Made by a program: the position numbers and the translations under genes | In this document: positions 7,624 to 31,785 of the stretch, piece after piece | Position numbering within the stretch: position 1 is the first letter of the stretch | How the letters are laid out: every line of letters starts with the position of its first letter | IMG/VR virus record: IMGVR_UViG_3300013121_000047 | Location: 32,001-96,000 of that record | DNA: 64,000 nucleotides | DNA from: a virus | Lineage: Duplodnaviria; Caudoviricetes | Strand: one strand, 5' to 3' | The notes under the pieces: model-generated | What the model saw: only the letters and a program-made list of their open reading frames with translations | What the model was told of the DNA's origin: nothing | Database searches by the model: none

Positions 7624-9525
7624 TTATATGACGTTCATGTCGAGAACTGTTATTACGCTGTAGAAGGATGGATTTACCATTTTCATCCCGTTACGGGTCA
7701 TTAGACCTCTACGTGGTGTAAAGTGTTCGGTATCATAAACTGTTGGTGTGAGAACCAATGGAATATAAGGAGCGAACACGAAACCTGATTCAAGGAATCC
7801 TGATCCTTTGAGACCGATGAGGATTTTGTTACGTGGGAAGTATGGATCGCGGTAAACAGTGAAACGACCAGCGATTGTTCCAACTGATTCTGCACCGACA
7901 CTCATTTGATCTGAAACTTGGCCATTTCCGTCAACTTTGTAGTTGGCTTTGTAACCTTGTGTCGCTTCAAGAATTGTGCTTACATCTGGGCCACAAACAA
8001 TGAAGTTACCTGAGCCGCGAAGTGTTTTGCGGTGAATTTCATTTGAGCAGTCGATGATTGTTTCGATGAGTGTTTCGTACCATTCTCTAACAGTTCCAGT
8101 GAATGCTGGACCCGCTGCGAGAGAGGCAGAACGTAATACTTCAGAACCTGTTTGTTTGTTAACGAATTTACCTGGAGCTCTTGACCAGTAGTATCTCGCG
8201 GCTTTCGCTTCGAGAAGTAATTGGTTAAGAATTTCGCGGTCGATTTCGAGAGTAACCATTTCTGAAATGATGTTGGTTAATTCAGCTTCAACATCCATTG
8301 AATAAAACGCGGACAAATCCTGTGCCATCTCAGGACTCCAGCGAGCGCGAAGTTTTCTTGCTTGCGCTGTAACAGCTGTTGATTCAATTTTGATTTCAAC
8401 TTCTGGAATCGCTGGTGTTGGTGGTGTTGCGAAATCAGATTCAAATGGAGAAAGTGTAAGTGCACTTCCATCTGTGTTAACAGTAAGAGAGTCACCAATT
8501 GCAGCAGACATTGTTACTGGACCTGCTGGTACTGCACCTGTATTACTTACAGCAACAACGAAAAGTACGTGTGTACCATTCAAGTGATCTGGTGTAAATG
8601 TTGAGGTAAGGTAGTTCCAGTTACCGCGTTGGTTAAGTTTACGGAGGTTTTTAACTGATTGGCCACCTTGGTAGGTAGAATCCCAGTTGGCAACGCCGTT
8701 AGCTGTTGTGAAACCAACGATAGCAAGTTGATCTACCGCACGAAGGTCAGCTCCTGGAATCTTTGTGAGAACTTCAGAAGATGAAACGAAGGCAAAGCAG
8801 TAGTCAAGGGCCGCGTTTTCAACATCTGTTGAGATTTTAGAATCATAGTCGATCCAACGAGCATTTAATCCAGTAACTTCCGCCGCTGTTGCAACTGTAT
8901 CTGCTGCTGTCCAAGAAGTACCTGATGCACCGAATGCACCGATGTCTGGAACAACTACAGTTGTTGCTGACTTGTGAACTTTTGAGAAACCAGTGTTTAC
9001 GTTATCATACATACCACCCGCCGCGTTTGTTCCGCTACGAATATCGGCACCTGATGGTGAACCGAAAAGTGATTGTCCTTTTTTGTATGTAGAGGCTGTG
9101 GCCGCATCACTTAAGCTTAAACCAGCTGTTCCACCAACGTTAGAACCATATGAGTAATCCATGTAGAAGATAAGTCCTGATGGAAGGCTCATTGGTTGAA
9201 CTGAAACTAATTCATTGGAAATTAATCCAGCGAAAAGTCTACGAACGATTGGGAACGCGATGGAAATAAAACCAGCAACCTGACCACTAGAAGCGAGTCC
9301 TGCTCCGCCTAATGAAAGCGCATTCGCTTCCATAAGAACTTGTGGGTTACGGATCATTTCAGCCGCTTGGTTTTCGAGCAAGCGCGCCATTTTTTGTTTC
9401 GCACCTTTGCTATTAAAACCGTCGAGTAAACCGTAATTGGCCCACTTATCGACTAAACGATCGTCCATTCCACGATTTGGATTAAGTTCTAAACCTTCTG
9501 ATAATTGTTGTAATGTAAAAGACAT
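7624..9525 (-). CDS. Major capsid protein, T4 gp23-like
   Basis: LLENQ, PIVRR, VSVQPMSLPSGLIFY, ARKLRARWSPEMAQDL, EIDREIL, FAPYIPL, FTPRRGLMTR motifs; LME/A maturation site at residue 66. Confidence 0.97.
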   Translation of the reverse strand: MSFTLQQLSEGLELNPNRGMDDRLVDKWANYGLLDGFNSKGAKQKMARLLENQAAEMIRNPQVLMEANALSLGGAGLASSGQVAGFISIAFPIVRRLFAGLISNELVSVQPMSLPSGLIFYMDYSYGSNVGGTAGLSLSDAATASTYKKGQSLFGSPSGADIRSGTNAAGGMYDNVNTGFSKVHKSATTVVVPDIGAFGASGTSWTAADTVATAAEVTGLNARWIDYDSKISTDVENAALDYCFAFVSSSEVLTKIPGADLRAVDQLAIVGFTTANGVANWDSTYQGGQSVKNLRKLNQRGNWNYLTSTFTPDHLNGTHVLFVVAVSNTGAVPAGPVTMSAAIGDSLTVNTDGSALTLSPFESDFATPPTPAIPEVEIKIESTAVTAQARKLRARWSPEMAQDLSAFYSMDVEAELTNIISEMVTLEIDREILNQLLLEAKAARYYWSRAPGKFVNKQTGSEVLRSASLAAGPAFTGTVREWYETLIETIIDCSNEIHRKTLRGSGNFIVCGPDVSTILEATQGYKANYKVDGNGQVSDQMSVGAESVGTIAGRFTVYRDPYFPRNKILIGLKGSGFLESGFVFAPYIPLVLTPTVYDTEHFTPRRGLMTRNGMKMVNPSFYSVITVLDMNVI

Positions 9526-19658: not shown

Positions 19659-22312
19659 ATGAAAATAACTGATACCTTATTAAACAAAGCTCACCAAGAC
19701 GTTGTGTTTGGAGATAAAGGACAAAAAGAATTATTGAAAGGTGCCGAAATTTTATATCGTGCAGTTAAATCAACAATGGGTCCATCAGGGCGCAATGTTA
19801 TTATCGACAATGGAATTTCTCCGCCTTTTATTACAAAGGACGGGGTTACTGTTGCGAAAAATATTAATTTAAAAAATCATTTACAAAATATTGGCGCAGG
19901 ACTTGTAAAAGAGGTTGCATTAAAAACAAATGAATTAGGTGGAGATGGACCGCAACCACTATACTCAAAAATATTAACCCCAACAGGTTGGAAAACTATG
20001 GGTGATATAAAAATTGGAGATACAATTTGCGGAACTAATAACACTTTTCAAAAAGTTCTTGGTGTATATCCAAAAGGAAAAAAAGAAATCTATAAAATAG
20101 AATTTTCTGGTGGTCAATTTGTAGAGTGCTGCGAAGATCATTTATGGAGTATAGTAACAAATACTGGTAAAAAAAAGACAATTACAACAAAAGAATTATT
20201 TCAGTCTGGTGTTGTTTTTTATAAAAAAATACTAGATGCCATAAATTCTATGTTCCAAATACAAGTGTTGAATTCGCAGAAAAAACAAAACTAAAAATTG
20301 ACCCATATACTTTAGGTGTGTTGCTTGGTGATGGCAGTTTATCTATGGGGAAAACTTCTGTCGAAATTTCAGTAGGTTTAAACGAAGAATATATTCTAAA
20401 CAATCTTATTTTACCAAAAAACAATAAAATCAACAAATCTTTTTATATGAAAAAACATTATATAAAAGGAAAAATAGGTAAAATTAACAAGTATCATAAT
20501 GGAAAAGATATAAAAGATTTTTTACGTGAATTAAATTTATTGGGAACATATAGTCATACAAAATTTATTCCTGATTCATATTTATTTTCTTCAAAAAAAT
20601 CTCGTGAAGCTTTATTAAACGGCTTAATCGATACGGATGGTTATATAAATAACAAAAACCTTTTTGAAATTTCCACAGTAAGTGAACAGTTGAAGAATGA
20701 TATTGTTTTTTTATGTCGTAGTTTAGGAAAACAGGTTTGTGTTACAGAATATGCAAGAAAACCAGGCAGCGCATTTGGAACAAGAAAAATTTATCGAATT
20801 ACTGAGCTTAAAGGTCGAAAATATGGAATTCAAATAAAGTCCATAAAACCAACAGGATCATTTACTGAAATGCAGTGTATTAAAGTAAGTAATTCTGATT
20901 CGTTGTACATTACAGACAATTTCATTCCAACACACAATACAACAACCGCGACTGTTTTGGCCTATCATTTATTTAATAGTGGATATAAATTTTCTGCTGC
21001 GGGACGCAATGCTATCCTTTTAAAAAAGGGTATTGATTGGGCAACTGATGTTGTTATCAAACGGCTAAAAGAAATTTCAACAGAAGTTAGAAACGATGAA
21101 GATATCATCTCTGTTGGAACAATTTCAGCAAATGGTGACAGAGAAATTGGAAAACTTCTTTGCGAGGCTATTAAAAAAGTTGGAGAAGATGGAATTATTA
21201 CTGTTGAAAAAGCTAAAAGTGTCAAAACTACGTTAAGCGTAATTGATGGTTTAAATTTAGATGTTGGTTACATTTCTCCATTTTTCGTAACAAATCAAGA
21301 AAAATTAACTTCAGATTTAGAAAATCCACTCGTATTGGTAACAAATAAAAAGATTTCAACCAAAGAGCAACTTATTCCTGTAATGAAAATTGCCAATGAA
21401 AAATCTAGATCACTTTTAATTATTGCAGATGAAATAGACCAAGAACCACTTCACATGTTATTAACCAATAAAATGCATGGAGCGGTAATTTCTTGTGCTG
21501 TCAAAGCTCCATCTTATGGCGATAACAGAATTGATATATTACATGATATTTGTCTTATAACAGGCGCAACCTGTTTTGATGCTGCGCAGTCAATTCAATT
21601 GGAAAAATTAAAAGAAGAACATCTTGGTTCATGCGAAAAAATAGTTGTTTCTAAAATGTCAACCACTTTTTTTGGACTTGGAGAGTCTGTTAAAAAAGAA
21701 CAAATTGATGAAAGAGTAAAAGAACTCAAGCAAGTTTTATCGATGCCCGTAGAGGGCTTGGATGACTTAAAAAGAAATAATGTTAAAAAACGACTTGCTA
21801 AACTTGCTGGTGGCATTGCTATCATTCACGTTGGCGGCTCAACAGAAGTTGAAATAATAGAGAAAAAAGACAGAGTAGATGATGCCTTAAATGCAACACA
21901 AGCCGCAGTGCAAGAAGGAATATTACCAGGCGGTGGAACTGCTCTTTTTTATTGTTCGGAGTTTTTAAATGAAAAAATTTCAAAAAATGAAGAGGGGTTA
22001 AGTGAAGATGAAATTTTTGGTGCAAAAATTGTTTACGAAACTTGTAAAGCTCCCTTGAAAGTCATTGTTGATAACACAGGAAAAAATCCAGAAGTTGTTA
22101 TGGATCATATTTTAAGAACAACCAATTCCTTAAACTATGGATATAATGCGTTTACTCATACATATGAAAACTTAATAGACAATGGAGTATCTGATCCTGT
22201 TAAAGTAACAAGATATGCCCTTGAATTTGCAAGCTCTGTTGTAGGCTTGATGCTTACTTGTAACTGTGTTATTATGACGCCAGAAGAAGAAAGAAACGAA
22301 ATAGAGGAATAA
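19659..22312 (+). CDS. groEL: Chaperonin GroEL (97 aa N-extein + 457 aa C-extein) interrupted by an intein; frameshifted within the intein
   Basis: TMGPSGRNV, ITKDGVTVAK, GDG/TTTATVLA, ISANGD, RLAKLAGGIAII, DDALNATQAAVQEGILPGGG, DPVKVTR; exteins sum to 554 aa. Confidence 0.93.
19950..20938 (+). mobile_element. Class 3 intein with LAGLIDADG homing endonuclease, inserted in the GroEL GDG|TTT motif
   Basis: Starts PQPLYSKILTPTGW (Pro1, no N-terminal nucleophile), block B CCEDHLW, LGVLLGDGS and LNGLIDTDG endonuclease motifs, block F MQCIKV, ends FIPTHN before Thr+1; 989 nt, one base short of 330 codons. Confidence 0.92.
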
Positions 22313-23216: not shown

Positions 23217-23624
23217 ATGAGTTATTCATATAATAAAGCAGGAGCGGGTCTAGTTTCAGAATTTCAAATTTCTGGTTTACCATTTGTTACATCAAGTACT
23301 GCTGCTGCCGTTTCTGTTTCTTTTCCTTATGTTACACAATGGATTATGGTTAGGTCGAGCGGTTCAGTTATTACAATGGCCTTTACACCATCTGGATTTT
23401 CTACTGGAAACAATTTCCTTATTCCAGCAAACACCACAATTGGTCCACTTCGGTTACGAATAACCGACCTACATTTTAGTGGATCTGGGATGCAAGTTAT
23501 TGGTGGTTTAACTCAAATTGATATAAACAACTACTTTAAACTAGTTTCCACTGGAGCGCTTACAACACTAACTGGTGGATTGGCTGTTACTGATACCAAT
23601 TATTTTGCTTATAGAGGAATTTAA
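23217..23624 (+). CDS. Tandem paralog 1, putative virion protein
   Basis: FQISGLPFVT, FPYVTQW, LRITDL, GLT, DTNYFAYRGI. Confidence 0.75.
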   Translation: MSYSYNKAGAGLVSEFQISGLPFVTSSTAAAVSVSFPYVTQWIMVRSSGSVITMAFTPSGFSTGNNFLIPANTTIGPLRLRITDLHFSGSGMQVIGGLTQIDINNYFKLVSTGALTTLTGGLAVTDTNYFAYRGI

Positions 23625-23627
23625 AAC

Positions 23628-24023
23628 ATGAGTGTGTACAAAACAGGGCAATACAATGTGCCAAATTATCAAGTTTCTGGTCTTCCTTTTGTAACTTTTG
23701 CTGGCGGACCTATGGTTATTGAATTTCCTTATCTGACACAGTGGATCTTATTGAGAACAACAACCAGTTTAAGAGTTGGTTTCTCTCAAGGAGCACTAAC
23801 GAATGTTAACGATATTAACGGTTTAAGTACATCGTTCGTTCAAATGATTCCATTAAACGTTAGAATAAAAAAACTTTATGTAACAGGCGGAAGTTGTTAT
23901 GTGCTCGCAGGTTTAACAGGAATTGAAAATGGTTTTGAGCTAATTAACACTGCCTCATTAGCTGCGATTTCAGGTACCACCGATTTGGATTCTACAAATA
24001 TTTTTGCTTATAGAGGTATTTAA
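23628..24023 (+). CDS. Tandem paralog 2, putative virion protein
   Basis: YQVSGLPFVT, FPYLTQW, VRIKKL, AGLT, TNIFAYRGI. Confidence 0.75.
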   Translation: MSVYKTGQYNVPNYQVSGLPFVTFAGGPMVIEFPYLTQWILLRTTTSLRVGFSQGALTNVNDINGLSTSFVQMIPLNVRIKKLYVTGGSCYVLAGLTGIENGFELINTASLAAISGTTDLDSTNIFAYRGI

Positions 24024-24027
24024 AAAC

Positions 24028-24456
24028 ATGAGTATAAATCATCCTTTTAGTGGTTATGGATTTACACCAGAATATCAATTATCTGGGCTCCCTTATGTTA
24101 CGGGTGTCTCTCCAACTGACACAAGATTTAAAATTGAATTTCCTTACGTTACCCAGTGGTTTTATTTAAGATTTACGCAAGTTGCCAGATCCGCTTCGAT
24201 ATCATTTGAATCAACAAATGCCTCAACTTTAAACAAAATTAGTTTTGAGGCTTCTTCGGGAAATATGTTTTTTGGTCCATTCTTTTTAAGAATAAAAGAT
24301 CTTAATATAGAACAGACGCATGGAGTTCATGTTATAGCTGGTTTAACTTCAATTCCAAGAGCACGCGCGCCAAGTTTAGTATCTCCAATAAATTCATCTG
24401 TAACGGGTAGTTTATCTGCTGTTGATACAAACTACTTTATTTATAATGGAATTTAA
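24028..24456 (+). CDS. Tandem paralog 3, putative virion protein
   Basis: Probable start ATG 24028; YQLSGLPYVT, FPYVTQW, LRIKDL, AGLT, DTNYFIYNGI. Confidence 0.75.
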   Translation: MSINHPFSGYGFTPEYQLSGLPYVTGVSPTDTRFKIEFPYVTQWFYLRFTQVARSASISFESTNASTLNKISFEASSGNMFFGPFFLRIKDLNIEQTHGVHVIAGLTSIPRARAPSLVSPINSSVTGSLSAVDTNYFIYNGI

Positions 24457-26144
24457 TCTTTCAACAAACAAGAAATCGGAATTCCAAACATTTTTATCCC
24501 AGTAATGTCTTTTTTGTTAGCCAAATCATTTTCCGCATTTTGTCTATTTACCAATTCATTTGAAAGTGAATTTTGGTGCGCATTTATTATGTTTTGATTA
24601 ACTGATTTTGGTTGAATTGACTTTAAAAATATTTCCTCCCAAGAAATTCCATTTTGAGATTGTTTATTTGCACTGAGCCCTGTTGGTTCGTAAACTAGTA
24701 ATGCAAAAGAAAGTGCCATAATGGAGTCATCAAATTTTCCTCTTATTGCTTGTGTCTTTTTGCCATTCCAAATAAAAGTATCTAATTCTTTTGCAAATCT
24801 AATAGAATTAATTCTTAATAACTTATTTCTTAGTACATTTTCAAGTTGGGATAAAAGTTTTTCTCTAATTTTTGGAGAAGTTGTATGACCAGGATAAATA
24901 TTTTCTCTTTCCTCGTCGGTCATTAAATGAAGGTTTTCTGTAATCTTTTCTTCGTAGTAAAGATTTGGATACTTTAGATCTCTTAGTTTTATAGCCGCAG
25001 CAATTCCAATTGAGTTCATTTCATTGATAATTTTTGCAGTGTTATACTTGTATCCGTATTCAACTAAAAGTTCGGCAAATTTATCTGGTGGCATTTTACC
25101 ATAGAACTCTCCAACTTGCTCATCTGTATCCATATCAATTATATGACAGCAAGAATGATCTTCTCCATCTCCACGAGCGATATCGCTTGTAATGATATAT
25201 TTATGATCTTGCTCTGGTAATGTCCAAATCCAAAAATCATTGTTTTTAGCTTCTTCAGAAATCGGCATAGTGATACCAGATTTAATCCATTCAATAGTAT
25301 CCGCATCAAAAAATGTATTTCCAGAACCTTCAAATCCACAACAGTATTCTTTGTCAATTTTTTTAGCATCCATTGACTTAGTTTCATTCTCAAACCATTT
25401 TTCATCTCTATCAGGATGGACTTGCCAAGGCAGTTTTATCGCATGAAAACCATTTATACCAACTTCCTCGCAATGAAGACCAACTCGATCCTTTCTAAGT
25501 TCTCCAGTGTCTGCATTTTTATAAATGTCATAAAACTCATTTTTACCGTTTGGAGAAGAGAAAAGGATTGCGTCGCCGCCAGTTGTAATGGTTGGTCTCG
25601 CAGCTTCCCATATGTCAGAAAATTTCTCGATGTGAGCGCATTCATCAATAATCAATAAGGAACACGCAATACCACGAACGCTTTCTGGTGTTGTTGGTAT
25701 TGCTTCAATTTTTGAACCATTTGTGAACTCGATATATTTAACAGATTCCTTTTCTGTTTCTGTTAATCCTAATAGCCTTTTAATCCAATCTGGAACATCT
25801 TTAAACGCAATTCGAATTTTCTGAATCATATTCTTGGCAGTTTCTAGACGCGTTGCCATTAACCTTATATCTTTGTCCATATGAAACATGGCATACCATA
25901 AACAATATGCCGAAGTAATTGTACTTAGCCCAAGTTGTCTAGATTTAACAACAATATTGTATTTAAATTCCAAAAAGTCATTAATACAATCTTCTTGAAA
26001 TGGATAAAGTTTAAGAGGAATTCTCCCTTTGACTGGGTGCTGTATGTATATATAATTTTTAATAAAGTGAATTGGATCTTCTTTACATCTCTGTAATTCT
26101 TGGAGCTTTAGATTCACCTGAGCTTTTTGCGTATCATTTGCCAT
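24453..26144 (-). CDS. Terminase large subunit
   Basis: LYPFQ, KSRQLGLST Walker A, LIIDE Walker B, SSPNG, nuclease DIARGDGED and DDSIMA. Confidence 0.95.
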   Translation of the reverse strand: MANDTQKAQVNLKLQELQRCKEDPIHFIKNYIYIQHPVKGRIPLKLYPFQEDCINDFLEFKYNIVVKSRQLGLSTITSAYCLWYAMFHMDKDIRLMATRLETAKNMIQKIRIAFKDVPDWIKRLLGLTETEKESVKYIEFTNGSKIEAIPTTPESVRGIACSLLIIDECAHIEKFSDIWEAARPTITTGGDAILFSSPNGKNEFYDIYKNADTGELRKDRVGLHCEEVGINGFHAIKLPWQVHPDRDEKWFENETKSMDAKKIDKEYCCGFEGSGNTFFDADTIEWIKSGITMPISEEAKNNDFWIWTLPEQDHKYIITSDIARGDGEDHSCCHIIDMDTDEQVGEFYGKMPPDKFAELLVEYGYKYNTAKIINEMNSIGIAAAIKLRDLKYPNLYYEEKITENLHLMTDEERENIYPGHTTSPKIREKLLSQLENVLRNKLLRINSIRFAKELDTFIWNGKKTQAIRGKFDDSIMALSFALLVYEPTGLSANKQSQNGISWEEIFLKSIQPKSVNQNIINAHQNSLSNELVNRQNAENDLANKKDITGIKMFGIPISCLLKD

Positions 26145-26162
26145 GGTATATTTAATAACTCT

Positions 26163-26780
26163 TTATTTTTTAAAATATTCAGCTATAAAAAGATCGGGAA
26201 AATCTTTTGGTGATGATATTGCAATAATTTTTCCATATGGGTGAACACTTGGTTTCGCAACCTCAAGGAGATCTTGAAAATTAGGTGCAAACATTATTTC
26301 GTCAAATAAAACATAAGAAACAGACTCACCTTTAAAAGAAGATATTGTAGGCGGAAGAATTTTAATTGAAGCACCGTTACTGAACTGAATCTTGGTATTT
26401 GTTTCATTTTCTAGTTTCAGATATTTCGTAAACCAAGCTGGCAATAAAGTAAGTTGATACTTAATTTTTTGTAGAAGATATTTACCTGATGCAAACGAAC
26501 TAGCACAAATTATTGAAGACGCGCCGAAAAGTACAGCATTCTGTATTGCAAAAGCAATTAAAAAAGAAGTTTTACCAATTTGTCTTTTAGCAAAAAGAAA
26601 ATCTCCTGAAGGAGAATTGTTTATTCTTTCATTGAAAAATTTTTGATAATCATTAAAAATAAATGGTATATTACCTTTAACGGGGTTTTGTAAAAATAAA
26701 CATTCCTTTGAAAAGAGTGAAAGGTCATTTTTATAGTCTTCTATTTTCGTTTTTTCGTTAATAAGATTGATTATAGACAT
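26163..26780 (-). CDS. Terminase-like ATPase domain only (TerL paralog)
   Basis: QNPVKGNIPF, FNDYQ, KRQIGKTS, FSNGASI, VLFDE, ISSPK; ends before any nuclease domain. Confidence 0.85.
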   Translation of the reverse strand: MSIINLINEKTKIEDYKNDLSLFSKECLFLQNPVKGNIPFIFNDYQKFFNERINNSPSGDFLFAKRQIGKTSFLIAFAIQNAVLFGASSIICASSFASGKYLLQKIKYQLTLLPAWFTKYLKLENETNTKIQFSNGASIKILPPTISSFKGESVSYVLFDEIMFAPNFQDLLEVAKPSVHPYGKIIAISSPKDFPDLFIAEYFKK

Positions 26781-26809
26781 AGTATTCCTTAACTATATCA
26801 TAATATTAG

Positions 26810-27253
26810 TTATTTTACTTGGATTAATGCAAAAACTTTAAAAACTGAGGTTTTTTGAACACTATAGATCTGATAGGATAATGGATCAGAAGTTTCTTGG
26901 ATCGAATTATCTAACAATTCGAGCTTTATTTTCTTTTTAGCTGGTTCAGTGTTTTCATTTTTTGAAAGAACTTCGTTACTTTTGGCAATCTCGCTTAATT
27001 TTTCATAATCTTCTTCAATTTTTTTCATCCTTTTTTGAATATCGCTCAAAGCATCTTGTCGCCATTTTCTTTGAAGTTCTAATTTTACGGATTGATGTCC
27101 AGCAGAAACAAACGATTGATGGACAACTTTTATTAAAGTTTCATCGGCAGCTTCAAATTTTATCCAATGAGTGTTTCTTTCATCTTGTCCAGAATTCTGA
27201 GCCAGGGCGTTTGCTAATCTTTGATAAGTTAAATAATTTTTTACCTGTGACAT
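26810..27253 (-). CDS. Hypothetical protein
   Basis: 147 aa ORF upstream of the terminase genes. Confidence 0.7.
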   Translation of the reverse strand: MSQVKNYLTYQRLANALAQNSGQDERNTHWIKFEAADETLIKVVHQSFVSAGHQSVKLELQRKWRQDALSDIQKRMKKIEEDYEKLSEIAKSNEVLSKNENTEPAKKKIKLELLDNSIQETSDPLSYQIYSVQKTSVFKVFALIQVK

Positions 27254-27264
27254 TATGAAAATAA

Positions 27265-27537
27265 TTATTCAAAGTCCACAGATATTTTGTTATTCTTTTT
27301 TCGTTTGTTTATGTATTTTTTAAAAAATTCAGAATTCACATCAACTGATATCTGAGCTTTAATAAAGGTTGTTTCACATAAAAAACAACATTTTGATTCC
27401 TTGTAAGATAAAATATCATCAAATGTTCTCATGGCAAACTCACAAATTGGACAAAAAACTGGTATCACCACATGATTTTTCGGAGCAAACACGTAAAAAT
27501 TTTCTTTGATACTTTCCATAAATTTAATGATAGTCAA
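27265..27537 (-). CDS. Small zinc-finger protein
   Basis: CPIC...CCFLC. Confidence 0.65.
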   Translation of the reverse strand: MTIIKFMESIKENFYVFAPKNHVVIPVFCPICEFAMRTFDDILSYKESKCCFLCETTFIKAQISVDVNSEFFKKYINKRKKNNKISVDFE

Positions 27538-30500
27538 TTTTAGACTGTTTTGTTTCTGCGTTTTGTGAAATCTCTATTATTTGATCCATATACTCTTTGA
27601 GTGATTGAATATGCGTTATGACATATATGGTTTTAAACTTTTCTTTTAGCTTATATAAAAGTTTAACAACATTTCCTAGATTATTTTGATCTAAAGCGTC
27701 AAAACCTTCATCAATTATCAAAGAATCTAATTTGGGGAGCGGCGTAAGTTGCATGAGTGCAGCTCTAATAACCAAAGAAGAAATCATTTTTTCCATACCA
27801 GATGCCAATTCTATAATCCTTGTTGATTTTTCATCTTCGATAAAAATGTCTAATGTATTTACTCCGACCTCGGTTTGAAATTTTAGTTTAAAATCGACCA
27901 CATCAGCAAGGTAATCGTTAATCAATTTATTTATTATTGGCAATTGCGAATTTAACAACATTGCAGGAATACCATTTTTTGAAAATGCATCCAGGATTGA
28001 TTCGAGAAGCTTAACTTTTTTAACTAATTCCTCTTTAGTTTTTATAGAAGACTCAATATTTTCGATGGAATTTTCATTTTTTCCTATCTCCAGTATTAAA
28101 GTATTTAGTTTTTGATACAAGTGTTTCTTGGCATTTATTTTTTCGGTTTTTAGCTCATTTATTCCTGATAAAACAAAAAGTTTTTCGCATTTAGTTTTAT
28201 ACTCTTCTTTTTTCTCTTTTAATTCGGTAACATCATTTTCTAATATTGGAATCAGTTTTTCCTTCTTTAACGAAAGTTGCATTTTCAACTCAGAGCTTTT
28301 TTGTTTTAAACTTTTTATTTCATTTTCCAAATTATTTAAATTTTTCTTTTCTTCATTTAAGAGTAAATTAATACTATTAAATAATTCAACTTTTGCCTGT
28401 GCTTCTTCTTCATTAAAACCTAAGCTAAGAATTTCAAATTCAATATCCTTTAAATCAATTTTTGCTTGGTGCGCATCTTTTATATACACACAACTTGGAA
28501 AAGCATCTCCACACGGAACAATTTCTAGTTTTTTAACTACCTTTTTTGAATTTTCTAGATCTTTTTTCAGTAAAGAAATTTTCGCTTTCAAACTAGAAAG
28601 TTTTCTATATTCCTCTTCAAGAAGTGAAAGTTCATTTTTTATAGTTTCTATCTCTTCAATTTTAAGTTGAAAAAGTTCTTCTTTTTGTTTTAAAGTAGTT
28701 TCTTTTGTCTCTAGTAAAATTTTTAGTGTCTCGCAGTTTTTAATTTCAGTTGATAGTTCCAGCTCTTTCTTTGAAAGAAGAGCTGAAGTTGATATTAAGT
28801 TCTGGTGAAAGAAATTATATTCTTTTATATCTGGTAAATTTTCGATTTCTTCTTCTAATAAAGAAATCTGTTCTTCAGTTAGAGATTTTTCATTAAGAAG
28901 ATCTGCTAAAATTTCTTTTGAAGACGACAAATCTTCTTCTGCTTTAATTTTATCATAATTTTTTAATTCTCCCTTTTTCAGTATATTATATTCTTCGCTA
29001 ACAGAAGAATGAAGTTGTTTAAAAATATCTAAATCCAGAAACCGATTTAATAGTTCTTTTCTGGAAGTTGCGCCTGAGTTGATAAATGAATTAATCTGAC
29101 CCTGCGCAGAAAGTGATGTGAATAAAAAGTCGTCTGGTGTACCTATTATATTTCGCAGTACTTTTTCCGTATCTGTTCTTGATATTGAGTTTTCATTTTT
29201 AAGTTCGTATTGCGAACCGTTTCTATCCAATTTAAATAGCTTTAATGAAGTTGCCGCTTTATCTTCTTCTTCCAATTTTCTGTTCTTATTTTTCTGAATC
29301 TGTTTTTCTATTTTTCTTTCTAAGAGATACTTTTGCCCCGAAACATTAAACAATAATCTCATACTTGCATCTTTTTCTCGATTATTTACAACAAATGCAG
29401 ATTTTACAGGGGCTCTATCTGTTACATTATAAAGTGTAAGCGCTAGTGACCCAATTAGCGAAGATTTTCCGATTCGATTTTTTCCGTGAATACCAACTAA
29501 ACCATTTAATTTATTAAAATTAACTTTATTTTCTTTTCCATAAGAAAGAACATTGTCAAATTCATAGCTTTCAAGCTTTATAATTGCATCTCTTACTTGA
29601 TCGGATATCCCAGATAATTTTTCCAAATTTTCTTCAATTATCTTTTTAGCCTGTTCCTTGTCTATAGATTTATAATTCGAAATATTTCTTTCAATAAATT
29701 TCACATATAATTCTTTAATTTTTTCCTTATTTGTTTTTAACTCTTCTTTTGTAATCGATTCGCCTTGCAAATCTACTGAGTCAACAGTCAACAAAATTGA
29801 ATCGTCTATATCTACTGATTTTGCTCCTAGTTTAGTACAGCCAAAAGTTTTCAAAGAAAGTTTGTCATTATCTGATATTCTTGTGTTGCTTTTAATTCTA
29901 AGTTTCCAACCATGGGAAACCTTGTATTTTTGAACTAAAGATAATGTTACCTCTTGTGTTTTTTCCAAACTTTCTTCAAATGAAACCGTAAGAAAAAGGT
30001 AAGGATTAGGCACTTTAACAAATGATTTACTAAAATTTGTTTTCGACTCAATCTCCCAAACAGTGAAACCTTTGTCTAAGGATTCGCCGAAATCAAGCTG
30101 AGATAGACTTCCTGGATAATGAATCTTTCCATTTCTATCCATATCCTGTCGTTTGTGGATATCTCCTAAGAATCCGTAATCCACTACATTGAAAAAACTA
30201 TTGTCGATATCCGCTTCAGTAGAAGCGATCCCGTTTTCATAAACACACCCCAAAACAGAACCATGAAAAACTGCAATGTTAATTTTGTCTTTTTCAATTT
30301 TAGAAGACAATGGTTTCCATCCATCTTGATCAAAAAGAGAATAGAATAGAAAATTTACATTTTCCTTTTTAAAAGACTCTGATTTCTTATGAAGGTGAAG
30401 ATTTTTTTTATTTAAAGCTTTAATGATTGGAGAAATAGCATCTTCTCTTTGGTCATTTTTCAAATTTCCATCGTGATTGCCTAAAATTATATGAGTTTCA

Positions 30501-30715
30501 GCCACTTCTGCTAAAGAATTAAAAAAATCTACAAGTAACGAAATTGACTCTGGTGTAATGTTTTCAGTTTTAGTGTGAAAAATATCACCTGCTAAAACGA
30601 TACAGTCAACATTTTCTTTTTTTATTTTAGAAAAAAAGTTATCTAAAATAATTTTATTTTCATGAATTCTCTCTTTTCCTTGTATGTGAATATCAGCTAA
30701 ATGTGCTATTTTCAT
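27524..30715 (-). CDS. Fused SbcD/Mre11 nuclease - SbcC/Rad50 ATPase (gp47-gp46-like)
   Basis: ADIH, GDIFH, GNHD, HG, GDIH phosphoesterase motifs; GKNRIGKSS Walker A, coiled coil, ASGMEK signature, LIIDEGF Walker B, VITH. Confidence 0.93.
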   Translation of the reverse strand: MKIAHLADIHIQGKERIHENKIILDNFFSKIKKENVDCIVLAGDIFHTKTENITPESISLLVDFFNSLAEVAETHIILGNHDGNLKNDQREDAISPIIKALNKKNLHLHKKSESFKKENVNFLFYSLFDQDGWKPLSSKIEKDKINIAVFHGSVLGCVYENGIASTEADIDNSFFNVVDYGFLGDIHKRQDMDRNGKIHYPGSLSQLDFGESLDKGFTVWEIESKTNFSKSFVKVPNPYLFLTVSFEESLEKTQEVTLSLVQKYKVSHGWKLRIKSNTRISDNDKLSLKTFGCTKLGAKSVDIDDSILLTVDSVDLQGESITKEELKTNKEKIKELYVKFIERNISNYKSIDKEQAKKIIEENLEKLSGISDQVRDAIIKLESYEFDNVLSYGKENKVNFNKLNGLVGIHGKNRIGKSSLIGSLALTLYNVTDRAPVKSAFVVNNREKDASMRLLFNVSGQKYLLERKIEKQIQKNKNRKLEEEDKAATSLKLFKLDRNGSQYELKNENSISRTDTEKVLRNIIGTPDDFLFTSLSAQGQINSFINSGATSRKELLNRFLDLDIFKQLHSSVSEEYNILKKGELKNYDKIKAEEDLSSSKEILADLLNEKSLTEEQISLLEEEIENLPDIKEYNFFHQNLISTSALLSKKELELSTEIKNCETLKILLETKETTLKQKEELFQLKIEEIETIKNELSLLEEEYRKLSSLKAKISLLKKDLENSKKVVKKLEIVPCGDAFPSCVYIKDAHQAKIDLKDIEFEILSLGFNEEEAQAKVELFNSINLLLNEEKKNLNNLENEIKSLKQKSSELKMQLSLKKEKLIPILENDVTELKEKKEEYKTKCEKLFVLSGINELKTEKINAKKHLYQKLNTLILEIGKNENSIENIESSIKTKEELVKKVKLLESILDAFSKNGIPAMLLNSQLPIINKLINDYLADVVDFKLKFQTEVGVNTLDIFIEDEKSTRIIELASGMEKMISSLVIRAALMQLTPLPKLDSLIIDEGFDALDQNNLGNVVKLLYKLKEKFKTIYVITHIQSLKEYMDQIIEISQNAETKQSKIDYH

Positions 30716-31785
30716 GTTAGTTTTTCTAAAAGTCTTTCTTTTTTTGTTTTTGGATACCAGACAAATTCTTCTACAAATTCAAGTTTATTTTGAATACCTA
30801 ATTCCTGTAATTCCGCATAATCTTTTGCGTTATCATGTTTTATATTTGCTATAATAATTTTTGTACCAAAATCTCGAAGAATACTCAAGTTTTGAGCAAT
30901 TGTATTATATTTTTTTACTTCATTTTTATCCAACGATATTCTTAATATCTCAGGTTTAAATTCAAATAACCATTCACTTAACTTAGAAGTATTCTCTAAA
31001 CTTGAACCAAGAATAGGTATTGTATTTTTATATGGACTACAAATATAATCGAAGGGTCCTTCGACAAGAGTAATTTCTTTTAAAGAAGTGTCAATAAAGC
31101 CATGATTAAATATAATTTTTTTAGCAATAGAAGAATTTGTATACTTGGATTTCAAATCCGAGTCAACAAATAATCTGGCCGTGTAAAAATCAAATTCAAG
31201 ATCGCTATTAATCGAAGGAAATATAATCCTATTTTCCAATAGGAATTTTTCTTTATAATTTTTATACGAATAAAGAATTGATATGTTGTTATCCCATACT
31301 TGTTGTTCAGTCAATTTTCTTTTTTCAAACAAATATTTATTTGCTTTCACAAAAATATTTTTATAGATTGGATTTGTTGGCATTTTTAAAGCTAAAGATA
31401 TTTGTTCTGGTAAGCAGAATTTATTTTCTATCTGAGGTTTATTACCTAAAATAATAGACTCTATTTTTTCTTGAAAAGAAGAACCTGTAATAAAATCTTG
31501 ATTTAAGATTTTTGTTTTATCTTGAAATTTTTCAATATATTCTTTTAATAAAGATTTCTTATAATTATAAATAAGCTTAAATAAATTTCTACTTTTATAA
31601 CCACAAACCCAGCAATGTAAAGCAAAATCAGTTGTTCTTATAACAAGTTTCTTTTTATCATAAGAAAATCCTTTTTTCTCTTTGCATATTGGACAAACCA
31701 CACTAACATTTAATCCAGCATTTGAAGTTTGACAGTCTCCAAAACACCTTTCCAAAAAGTCCAATGTTTCAAGTTTCGAAGGCAT
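30712..31785 (-). CDS. DnaG/gp61-like primase
   Basis: CPIC...HCWVC zinc finger, RIIFPS, SKY, VEGPFD TOPRIM, KDYAE. Confidence 0.8.
   Translation of the reverse strand: MPSKLETLDFLERCFGDCQTSNAGLNVSVVCPICKEKKGFSYDKKKLVIRTTDFALHCWVCGYKSRNLFKLIYNYKKSLLKEYIEKFQDKTKILNQDFITGSSFQEKIESIILGNKPQIENKFCLPEQISLALKMPTNPIYKNIFVKANKYLFEKRKLTEQQVWDNNISILYSYKNYKEKFLLENRIIFPSINSDLEFDFYTARLFVDSDLKSKYTNSSIAKKIIFNHGFIDTSLKEITLVEGPFDYICSPYKNTIPILGSSLENTSKLSEWLFEFKPEILRISLDKNEVKKYNTIAQNLSILRDFGTKIIIANIKHDNAKDYAELQELGIQNKLEFVEEFVWYPKTKKERLLEKLT

Follow-up and report, generated by a model that had tools for sequence, protein, structure and literature searches.

A predicted stand-alone ATPase core of the large terminase, encoded directly upstream of terL in uncultured phages with T4-like head genes

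Terminases are two-subunit machines, and the large subunit (TerL) is a standard phylogenetic marker for tailed phages. In phage CBB, two proteins contain a gp17 domain, a trait of other Rak2-like phages that was "considered to be unusual", and a truncated large terminase is also found in the Sinorhizobium phages phiM12 and phiN3 (Buttimer et al. 2017, PMC5259590). Such a protein has been described as a hallmark of Rak2-like jumbo phages (PMC5259590; Kim et al. 2020, PMC7760394), and the jumbo-phage survey of Iyer et al. (2021) makes no mention of such copies. In phage T4, ATP sits in the cleft between the ATPase subdomains I and II (NsubI and NsubII) of the large terminase gp17, whose ATPase is regulated by gp16 (PMC9958956). 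Here we analyze a stretch of 64,000 nucleotides (nt), hereafter the window, comprising bases 32001–96000 of the 185-kb IMG/VR virus record IMGVR_UViG_3300013121_000047 (~30% G+C, judged to be about half complete). Directly upstream of a full-length terL, the window carries a gene of 205 amino acids (aa) that is a selection-maintained, stand-alone copy of NsubI of a T4-type large terminase with the full set of ATP-binding and hydrolysis motifs. This arrangement is already in print as "truncated large terminase" or gp17.2, a kind recognized as an open reading frame (ORF) of ~180–235 aa that encodes part of a gp17 domain and immediately precedes a full-length terL on its strand. The window gene has each of these properties and is, by its motifs, a catalytically live-looking member.

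The original prediction, made from the sequence alone, was that the short ORF is collinear with the N-terminal domain of the TerL that follows it. Both ORFs are as described, and BLASTP aligned the two proteins at 30% identity over 191 columns (E 2e-22), with aa 12–191 of the short protein collinear with TerL residues 16–198. Profile searches of Pfam, PHROGs and PDB returned matches to gp17 only: PF03237 (Terminase_6N; 36.6 bits against a cut-off of 22, E 5e-9), phrog_2 (E 1.4e-11) and gp17 structures in PDB (E 6e-10), in which aa 16–195 correspond to residues 113–292 of T4/RB49 gp17, covering Q143, R162, K166 and D255/E256. All ATPase motifs are retained, likewise as predicted: a Q motif (FNDYQ), a Walker A with the P-loop arginine (KRQIGKTS), a Walker B with the catalytic glutamate (LFDE) and motif C (SSP). 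A near-invariant arginine (RG before Walker B) is lysine in the window copy and arginine in its orthologues. The AlphaFold2 model of the short protein, built with 101 sequences, was of high confidence (predicted local distance difference test 93.1, predicted template modelling score 0.90) except for the last ~15 residues, which were less confident. Its best fold match was the ATPase domain of T4 gp17 (2o0j; query-normalized template modelling score (TMq) 0.83, root mean square deviation 2.6 Å).

The protein stops 13 aa after motif C (SSPK), at about gp17 residue 302, leaving out the lid subdomain NsubII and the nuclease/translocation domain. No Terminase_6C or nuclease match was found in it, and it does not qualify as a complete TerL. 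There is no dedicated PHROG family for short copies, all of which match the TerL families phrog_5989 or phrog_2. A small terminase subunit (TerS) was considered as a candidate identity, given that in some loci the short gene lies where TerS would be, and was rejected on the grounds that the fold is that of an ASCE ATPase.

The gene order on the minus strand is a fused SbcCD-like gene (1063 aa), a 90-aa ORF, a 147-aa ORF, the 205-aa ORF and TerL, with the following features around the short gene (window coordinates):

26163–26780, minus strand: short gene, 205-aa ATPase-core-only TerL paralogue, a gp17.2-type "truncated large terminase"; Walker A at aa 65–72, Walker B with glutamate at aa 157–161, motif C at aa 189–191
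24453–26144, minus strand: full-length TerL, 563 aa, intein-free, with ATPase and nuclease and a lysine-shifted Walker A (KSRQLGLST)
26145–26162, minus strand: 18-nt spacer from the TAA of the short gene to the ATG of terL, in frame here
26781–26809, minus strand: 29-nt spacer 5' of the short gene; contains AAGGA, 6 nt ahead of the ATG
26810–27253, minus strand: 147-aa gene, highly conserved, in the position that TerS (gp16) occupies in phiM12-type loci

The AAGGA bears out the claim that the short gene has its own ribosome-binding site. A "TAGTTA box" had also been proposed, and this did not hold up: TAGTTA occurs 30 times in the window versus 46.6 expected, so it is not enriched, while TATAGTTA occurs 6 times versus 3.2 expected. 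A promoter and terminator scan of positions 24000–31500 gave background levels. The junction with terL is an 18-nt gap in the window, an 8-nt gap or an 11-nt overlap in relatives and a 4-nt overlap in a phiM12-like metagenomic phage (L098) and in phiM12 itself, and such tiny gaps and overlaps imply that the two genes are co-expressed. Because the short ORF and terL share a frame in the window and lie only 18 nt apart, an artefact was also considered, namely a misassembly, a frameshifted terL or a stop-codon read-through fusion. The two-gene order recurs in more than ten independent assemblies, the proteins are only 30% identical, and both spacing and frame differ among relatives, which rejects read-through fusion and leaves an artefact with practically no probability. 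Misassembly, which the original prediction had named as its possible undoing, is thereby refuted.

Conservation and the ratio of nonsynonymous to synonymous substitution rates (dN/dS) in relatives had been suggested as a check on whether the short gene is an old, maintained duplicate, and the second half of that claim is borne out. Orthologues of 200–209 aa are intact at the same position in five lineages (the window, L003/L004, L010, L102/L103 and L099/L100), across which identity of the SbcCD-like protein falls to 66%. At unsaturated pairs, dN/dS was 0.17–0.24 for the short gene, compared with 0.04–0.08 for TerL and 0.00–0.01 for the 147-aa gene. Between the window and L099, the short proteins share 28% identity, the TerLs 77% and the 147-aa proteins 67%, and yet the divergence of the five lineages has left the Q motif, R..GKT, DE and S[ST][PA] in place. 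The short copies of L099/L100 end just past motif C.

With NsubII and everything after NsubI missing, the short protein is predicted to be neither a translocating motor subunit nor a DNA cutter. It is nevertheless homologous to a ring-forming ATPase core, has intact motifs and is apparently co-expressed with terL, as might be expected if it joined TerL in mixed rings on the portal as a true subunit of the motor. We regard this as very unlikely, given the absence of the NsubII lid and of the whole C-terminal domain, the existence of a sister lineage without the short gene (see below) and the state of the resident TerL. The ATPase motifs of TerL are invariant, so TerL needs no surrogate: K67, R69, Q70, G72, D167 and E168 are identical across 27 full-length TerLs of this type (K-type). 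Their P-loop, KSRQLG[LI]ST with the lysine at its start, was present in 70 of 149 TerL N-domains, which form a clade with 99% support. The contrast originally drawn between the GKT of the short copy and the deviant KSRQLGLST of TerL is real but is not a special trait of this TerL, since its whole clade shares the motif. The lysine-shifted motif belongs to an established class of terminase P-loops that, like that of lambda gpA, deviate in having their lysine at the N-terminal end. A clade-wide motif with an invariant lysine gives no sign that TerL has handed over its ATPase function and rules out a scenario in which TerL lost that activity and the short gene supplies it; by these patterns, the ATPase of TerL itself is under strong constraint.

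In L003 (L003:8627-10726), L004 and L010, terL carries a 136-aa mini-intein directly after the Walker B Asp-Glu (IIDE|C...SSN|C), and the terL genes of L099/L100 and L102/L103 are similarly long (698–705 aa). The window terL is intein-free and otherwise 91% identical to those of L003/L004, a presence/absence polymorphism. Two phiM12-like metagenomic phages (L011:4307-6478 and L098:5600-8581) have a TerL intein inside the Walker A P-loop (SRQAGK|C...SHN|TT). Overall, the terL next to a short copy carries an intein in L003/L004, L010, L011, L065 and L098.

We assign the phage to an uncultured group of jumbo myophages with T4-like head genes, on sequence grounds: its major capsid protein (MCP) matches phrog_138 (E 9e-70), and the jumbo assignment follows from relatives on contigs of up to 390 kb. 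A blastn search against GenBank phages found no similarity at the DNA level, and an IMG/VR scan with a single protein turned up no relative. The nearest cultured TerLs, at 31–37% identity, are those of Microcystis phage Mel-JY01, Flavobacterium phage immuto and Rhizobium phage RHph_I1_18, and no short copy was found in these three phages. Directly downstream of terL, on the opposite strand, lie three tandem paralogous ORFs (window 23217–24456, plus strand; 135, 131 and 150 aa; 37–39% mutual identity) that have no family match and number five in L099 and zero in the P0078-lineage contig. Beyond them, a GroEL-like chaperonin gene (window 20318–22312, plus strand) is split by a LAGLIDADG-type intein; GroEL lengths vary from 554 to 893 aa among relatives, which suggests that this intein, too, is polymorphic for presence or absence.

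What the short protein does can be proposed only tentatively, and this applies equally to the motor-accessory, dominant-negative and Avs-decoy roles put forward with the original prediction. The reading we lean towards, while giving it somewhat less than an even chance, is that of an ATP-dependent, non-essential factor that assists or modulates the initiation of packaging at a site other than the portal. Under this model, which draws on motifs and the predicted fold, the protein would be made together with TerL and would bind and probably hydrolyze ATP. It would be unable to dock, translocate or cut DNA and would occupy interfaces normally used by the TerL ATPase core, namely those with a TerS-like partner, with DNA or with neighbouring TerL subunits. 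A role in packaging is supported by the recurrence of a packaging or head-module context in unrelated T4-type lineages. A complex prediction with TerL, the 147-aa protein and the short protein scored 0.00, which gives no verdict and counts neither way.

Several observations weigh against a packaging modulator. Searches of Pfam, PHROGs and Atlas, and AlphaFold2 with Foldseek, all failed to identify the 147-aa neighbour as TerS. The short gene evolves 4–5 times faster than TerL and the 147-aa gene, which is unusual for a core packaging factor, and the L010 copy has an eroded C-terminus that has lost the strand before motif C. In the most divergent syntenic lineage (L101 and the P0078 contig; SbcCD 53–55% identical, the outgroup by midpoint rooting), the 147-aa gene adjoins terL and the short gene is absent. 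This lineage makes the short gene probably dispensable, and the distribution points to a single gain in the ancestor of the five carriers or a single loss in the sixth lineage. Finally, catalytically dead short copies exist elsewhere, in CBB (CBB_274) and at locus L065, so that ATP turnover would not be universally required for the role of these copies.

The short copies belong to a wider set. A profile search of 1.84 billion representative proteins revealed many proteins of ~180–220 aa among ordinary TerLs. Most T4-like loci lack a short copy, which was present in only 3 of 80 loci in one IMG/VR scan. The Q motif, R..GK[ST], hhhhDE and S[ST][PA] are present in the window copy and in 15 of the 17 short copies tabulated. 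In L011, L098 and phiM12, the order is gp13-gp14-gp15-TerS(-like)-short-TerL-gp18, and in L014 it is TerS-like-short-TerL. In L017, the short copy adjoins the portal gene; this gene encodes 1373 aa with two intein-like insertions, next to a 193-aa TerL-ATPase copy (L017:662-4783), and there is no terL within 5 kb. Among ~2,500 GenBank phage records with a gp17-like match, a second match to gp17.2 occurred only in phiM12, phiM7, phiM19 and phiN3.

Whether the duplicate is also old, as first proposed, depends on how its phylogeny is read. In a site-heterogeneous tree, a branch with 98/97 support separates all full-length TerL N-domains from the live short copies, which comprise the window clade (99/95), a second clade (95/82), P0013 and P0032; across our trees, the support for placing the short copy outside all full-length TerLs was 96–98%. 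However, an origin of the window clade within its own K-type TerL clade was not rejected (approximately unbiased (AU) test, p 0.064), a sister lineage has no copy, and by BLAST each short copy is closest to TerLs of its own phage's type. Given the AU and BLAST results, two histories are equally tenable: a single old family, or recurrent local duplications that then diverged quickly and were drawn together in the tree by long-branch attraction. The dead L065 copy sits beside its own TerL in the tree. It is 225 aa long and begins with the same 10 residues (MPISYEKVKG) as the downstream TerL (L065:2389-6760), whose intein halves are separated by a 390-aa TnpB-like gene.

Another reading is that the gene is a slowly decaying or near-neutral tandem duplicate of the 5' half of terL, its reading frame kept mainly for translational coupling to terL or for terL expression. 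The short gene has the highest dN/dS among ten neighbouring genes, and the eroded L010 copy, the dead copies (including the L065 gene with its shared N-terminus), the lineage that lacks the gene and the affinity of each copy for its own phage's TerL type would all be expected of such a duplicate. We nonetheless consider it unlikely, as dN/dS lies well under 1 at unsaturated pairs, the five lineages show no stops or frameshifts although synonymous sites are saturated, and the catalytic residues have been kept while the remaining protein diverged to 28% identity.

Fast evolution combined with retention of the ATP-site residues, in a gene that a sister lineage can dispense with, would also fit a protein of phage–host or phage–phage conflict. 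Such a protein would mimic the TerL core and engage host STAND/Avs-type sensors, either soaking them up or binding them without activation, or else poison the terminase of a co-infecting phage or satellite. Avs1–3 sense TerL by fold (PMC13581612), and the short-protein model aligns to the Avs3-bound PhiV-1 terminase chain (8dgc_E) with a TMq of 0.71. However, a decoy needs no catalytic glutamate or motif C, the position in the packaging operon is kept across distant lineages, and the phage has no known host or defence system to act upon. Moreover, Ksap2, the only small TerL-ATPase-like phage protein to have been tested, activates KpAvs2 and does not block it (PMC11564622), which makes a TerL mimic as likely a liability. 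On this balance, we find a conflict role less likely than a packaging modulator but regard it as the main rival. The genome also holds a truncated MCP copy that could speak for this reading, a 160-aa ORF located before the window (G000:C1:27325-27807) that matches aa 445–575 of the 633-aa MCP (window 7624–9525, minus strand; 34% identity, E 4e-17) and gives this genome a second case in which one domain of a core virion protein exists as a separate paralogue. The more specific proposal that the short protein is a dedicated conflict protein within a wider strategy that includes this MCP copy seems to us improbable.

Truncated terminases have so far been mentioned only in passing, in genome papers. 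To these, we add a live-motif clade in uncultured phages with genomes of at least 390 kb, measurements of rate that show evolution 4–5-fold faster than that of TerL, and a natural lineage without the gene. The recurrence of ATP-core-only copies, under purifying selection and in live and dead forms, points to an unrecognized layer of packaging control or of phage–host conflict. A practical caution for annotation is that terL is not necessarily split or broken when two genes of one phage are called "terminase large subunit".

Set against known systems, the window copy has the same fold and motif order as ATPase subdomain I of T4 gp17 (PDB 2o0j, 2o0h, 3cpe). In gp17, however, NsubI is never free-standing: NsubII closes the ATP cleft and the C-terminal domain cuts and translocates DNA, and the window copy has neither. 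CBB_274 of the Rak2-like jumbo myophages is, like the window copy, encoded by a short ORF just ahead of terL and contains only part of the gp17 domain. Unlike the window copy, which keeps all motifs, it is 235 aa long and has lost the Walker A lysine and the catalytic glutamate (IRGAGLST, IYDS), and in our tree it falls on a very long branch among TerLs with a canonical P-loop (T-type). A different kind of likeness is offered by Ksap2 (Bas60_220), the trigger of KpAvs2, a small taxon-restricted phage protein that is reported to resemble the TerL ATPase domain and shows that TerL-sensing receptors can read such mini-proteins (Bechon et al. 2024, PMC11564622).

A close counterpart in architecture is gp17.2 of phiM12 (YP_009143010.1; also in phiM7, phiM19 and phiN3), a protein of 196 aa encoded on the same strand directly before gp17. 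As in the window copy, its Walker A (GKT), Walker B (DE) and motif C are intact, and it ends at motif C. The phiM12 record gives the order gp16 (TerS), gp17.2 and gp17, with gp17.2 annotated as a second "terminase large subunit" that has a partial PHA02533 domain. The two loci differ in that the neighbouring TerL of phiM12 is of the canonical T-type and not the lysine-shifted K-type, and in that a recognizable gp16 TerS lies upstream. The P-loop of phiM12 gp17 itself (L113:1434-3065) reads SRQSAKTT, in which alanine replaces the usual glycine before the lysine, while the neighbouring gp17.2 has GKT. The BLAST hits detected with the window protein, the nearest of which outside its own clade are 27–30% identical, did not include phiM12 gp17.2. 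The tree places phiM12 gp17.2 together with the window clade and the remaining live short copies, a 96% branch away from full-length TerLs. As a cultured phage with a gp17.2 that is live by its motifs, phiM12 offers a direct experimental route to the function of these proteins.

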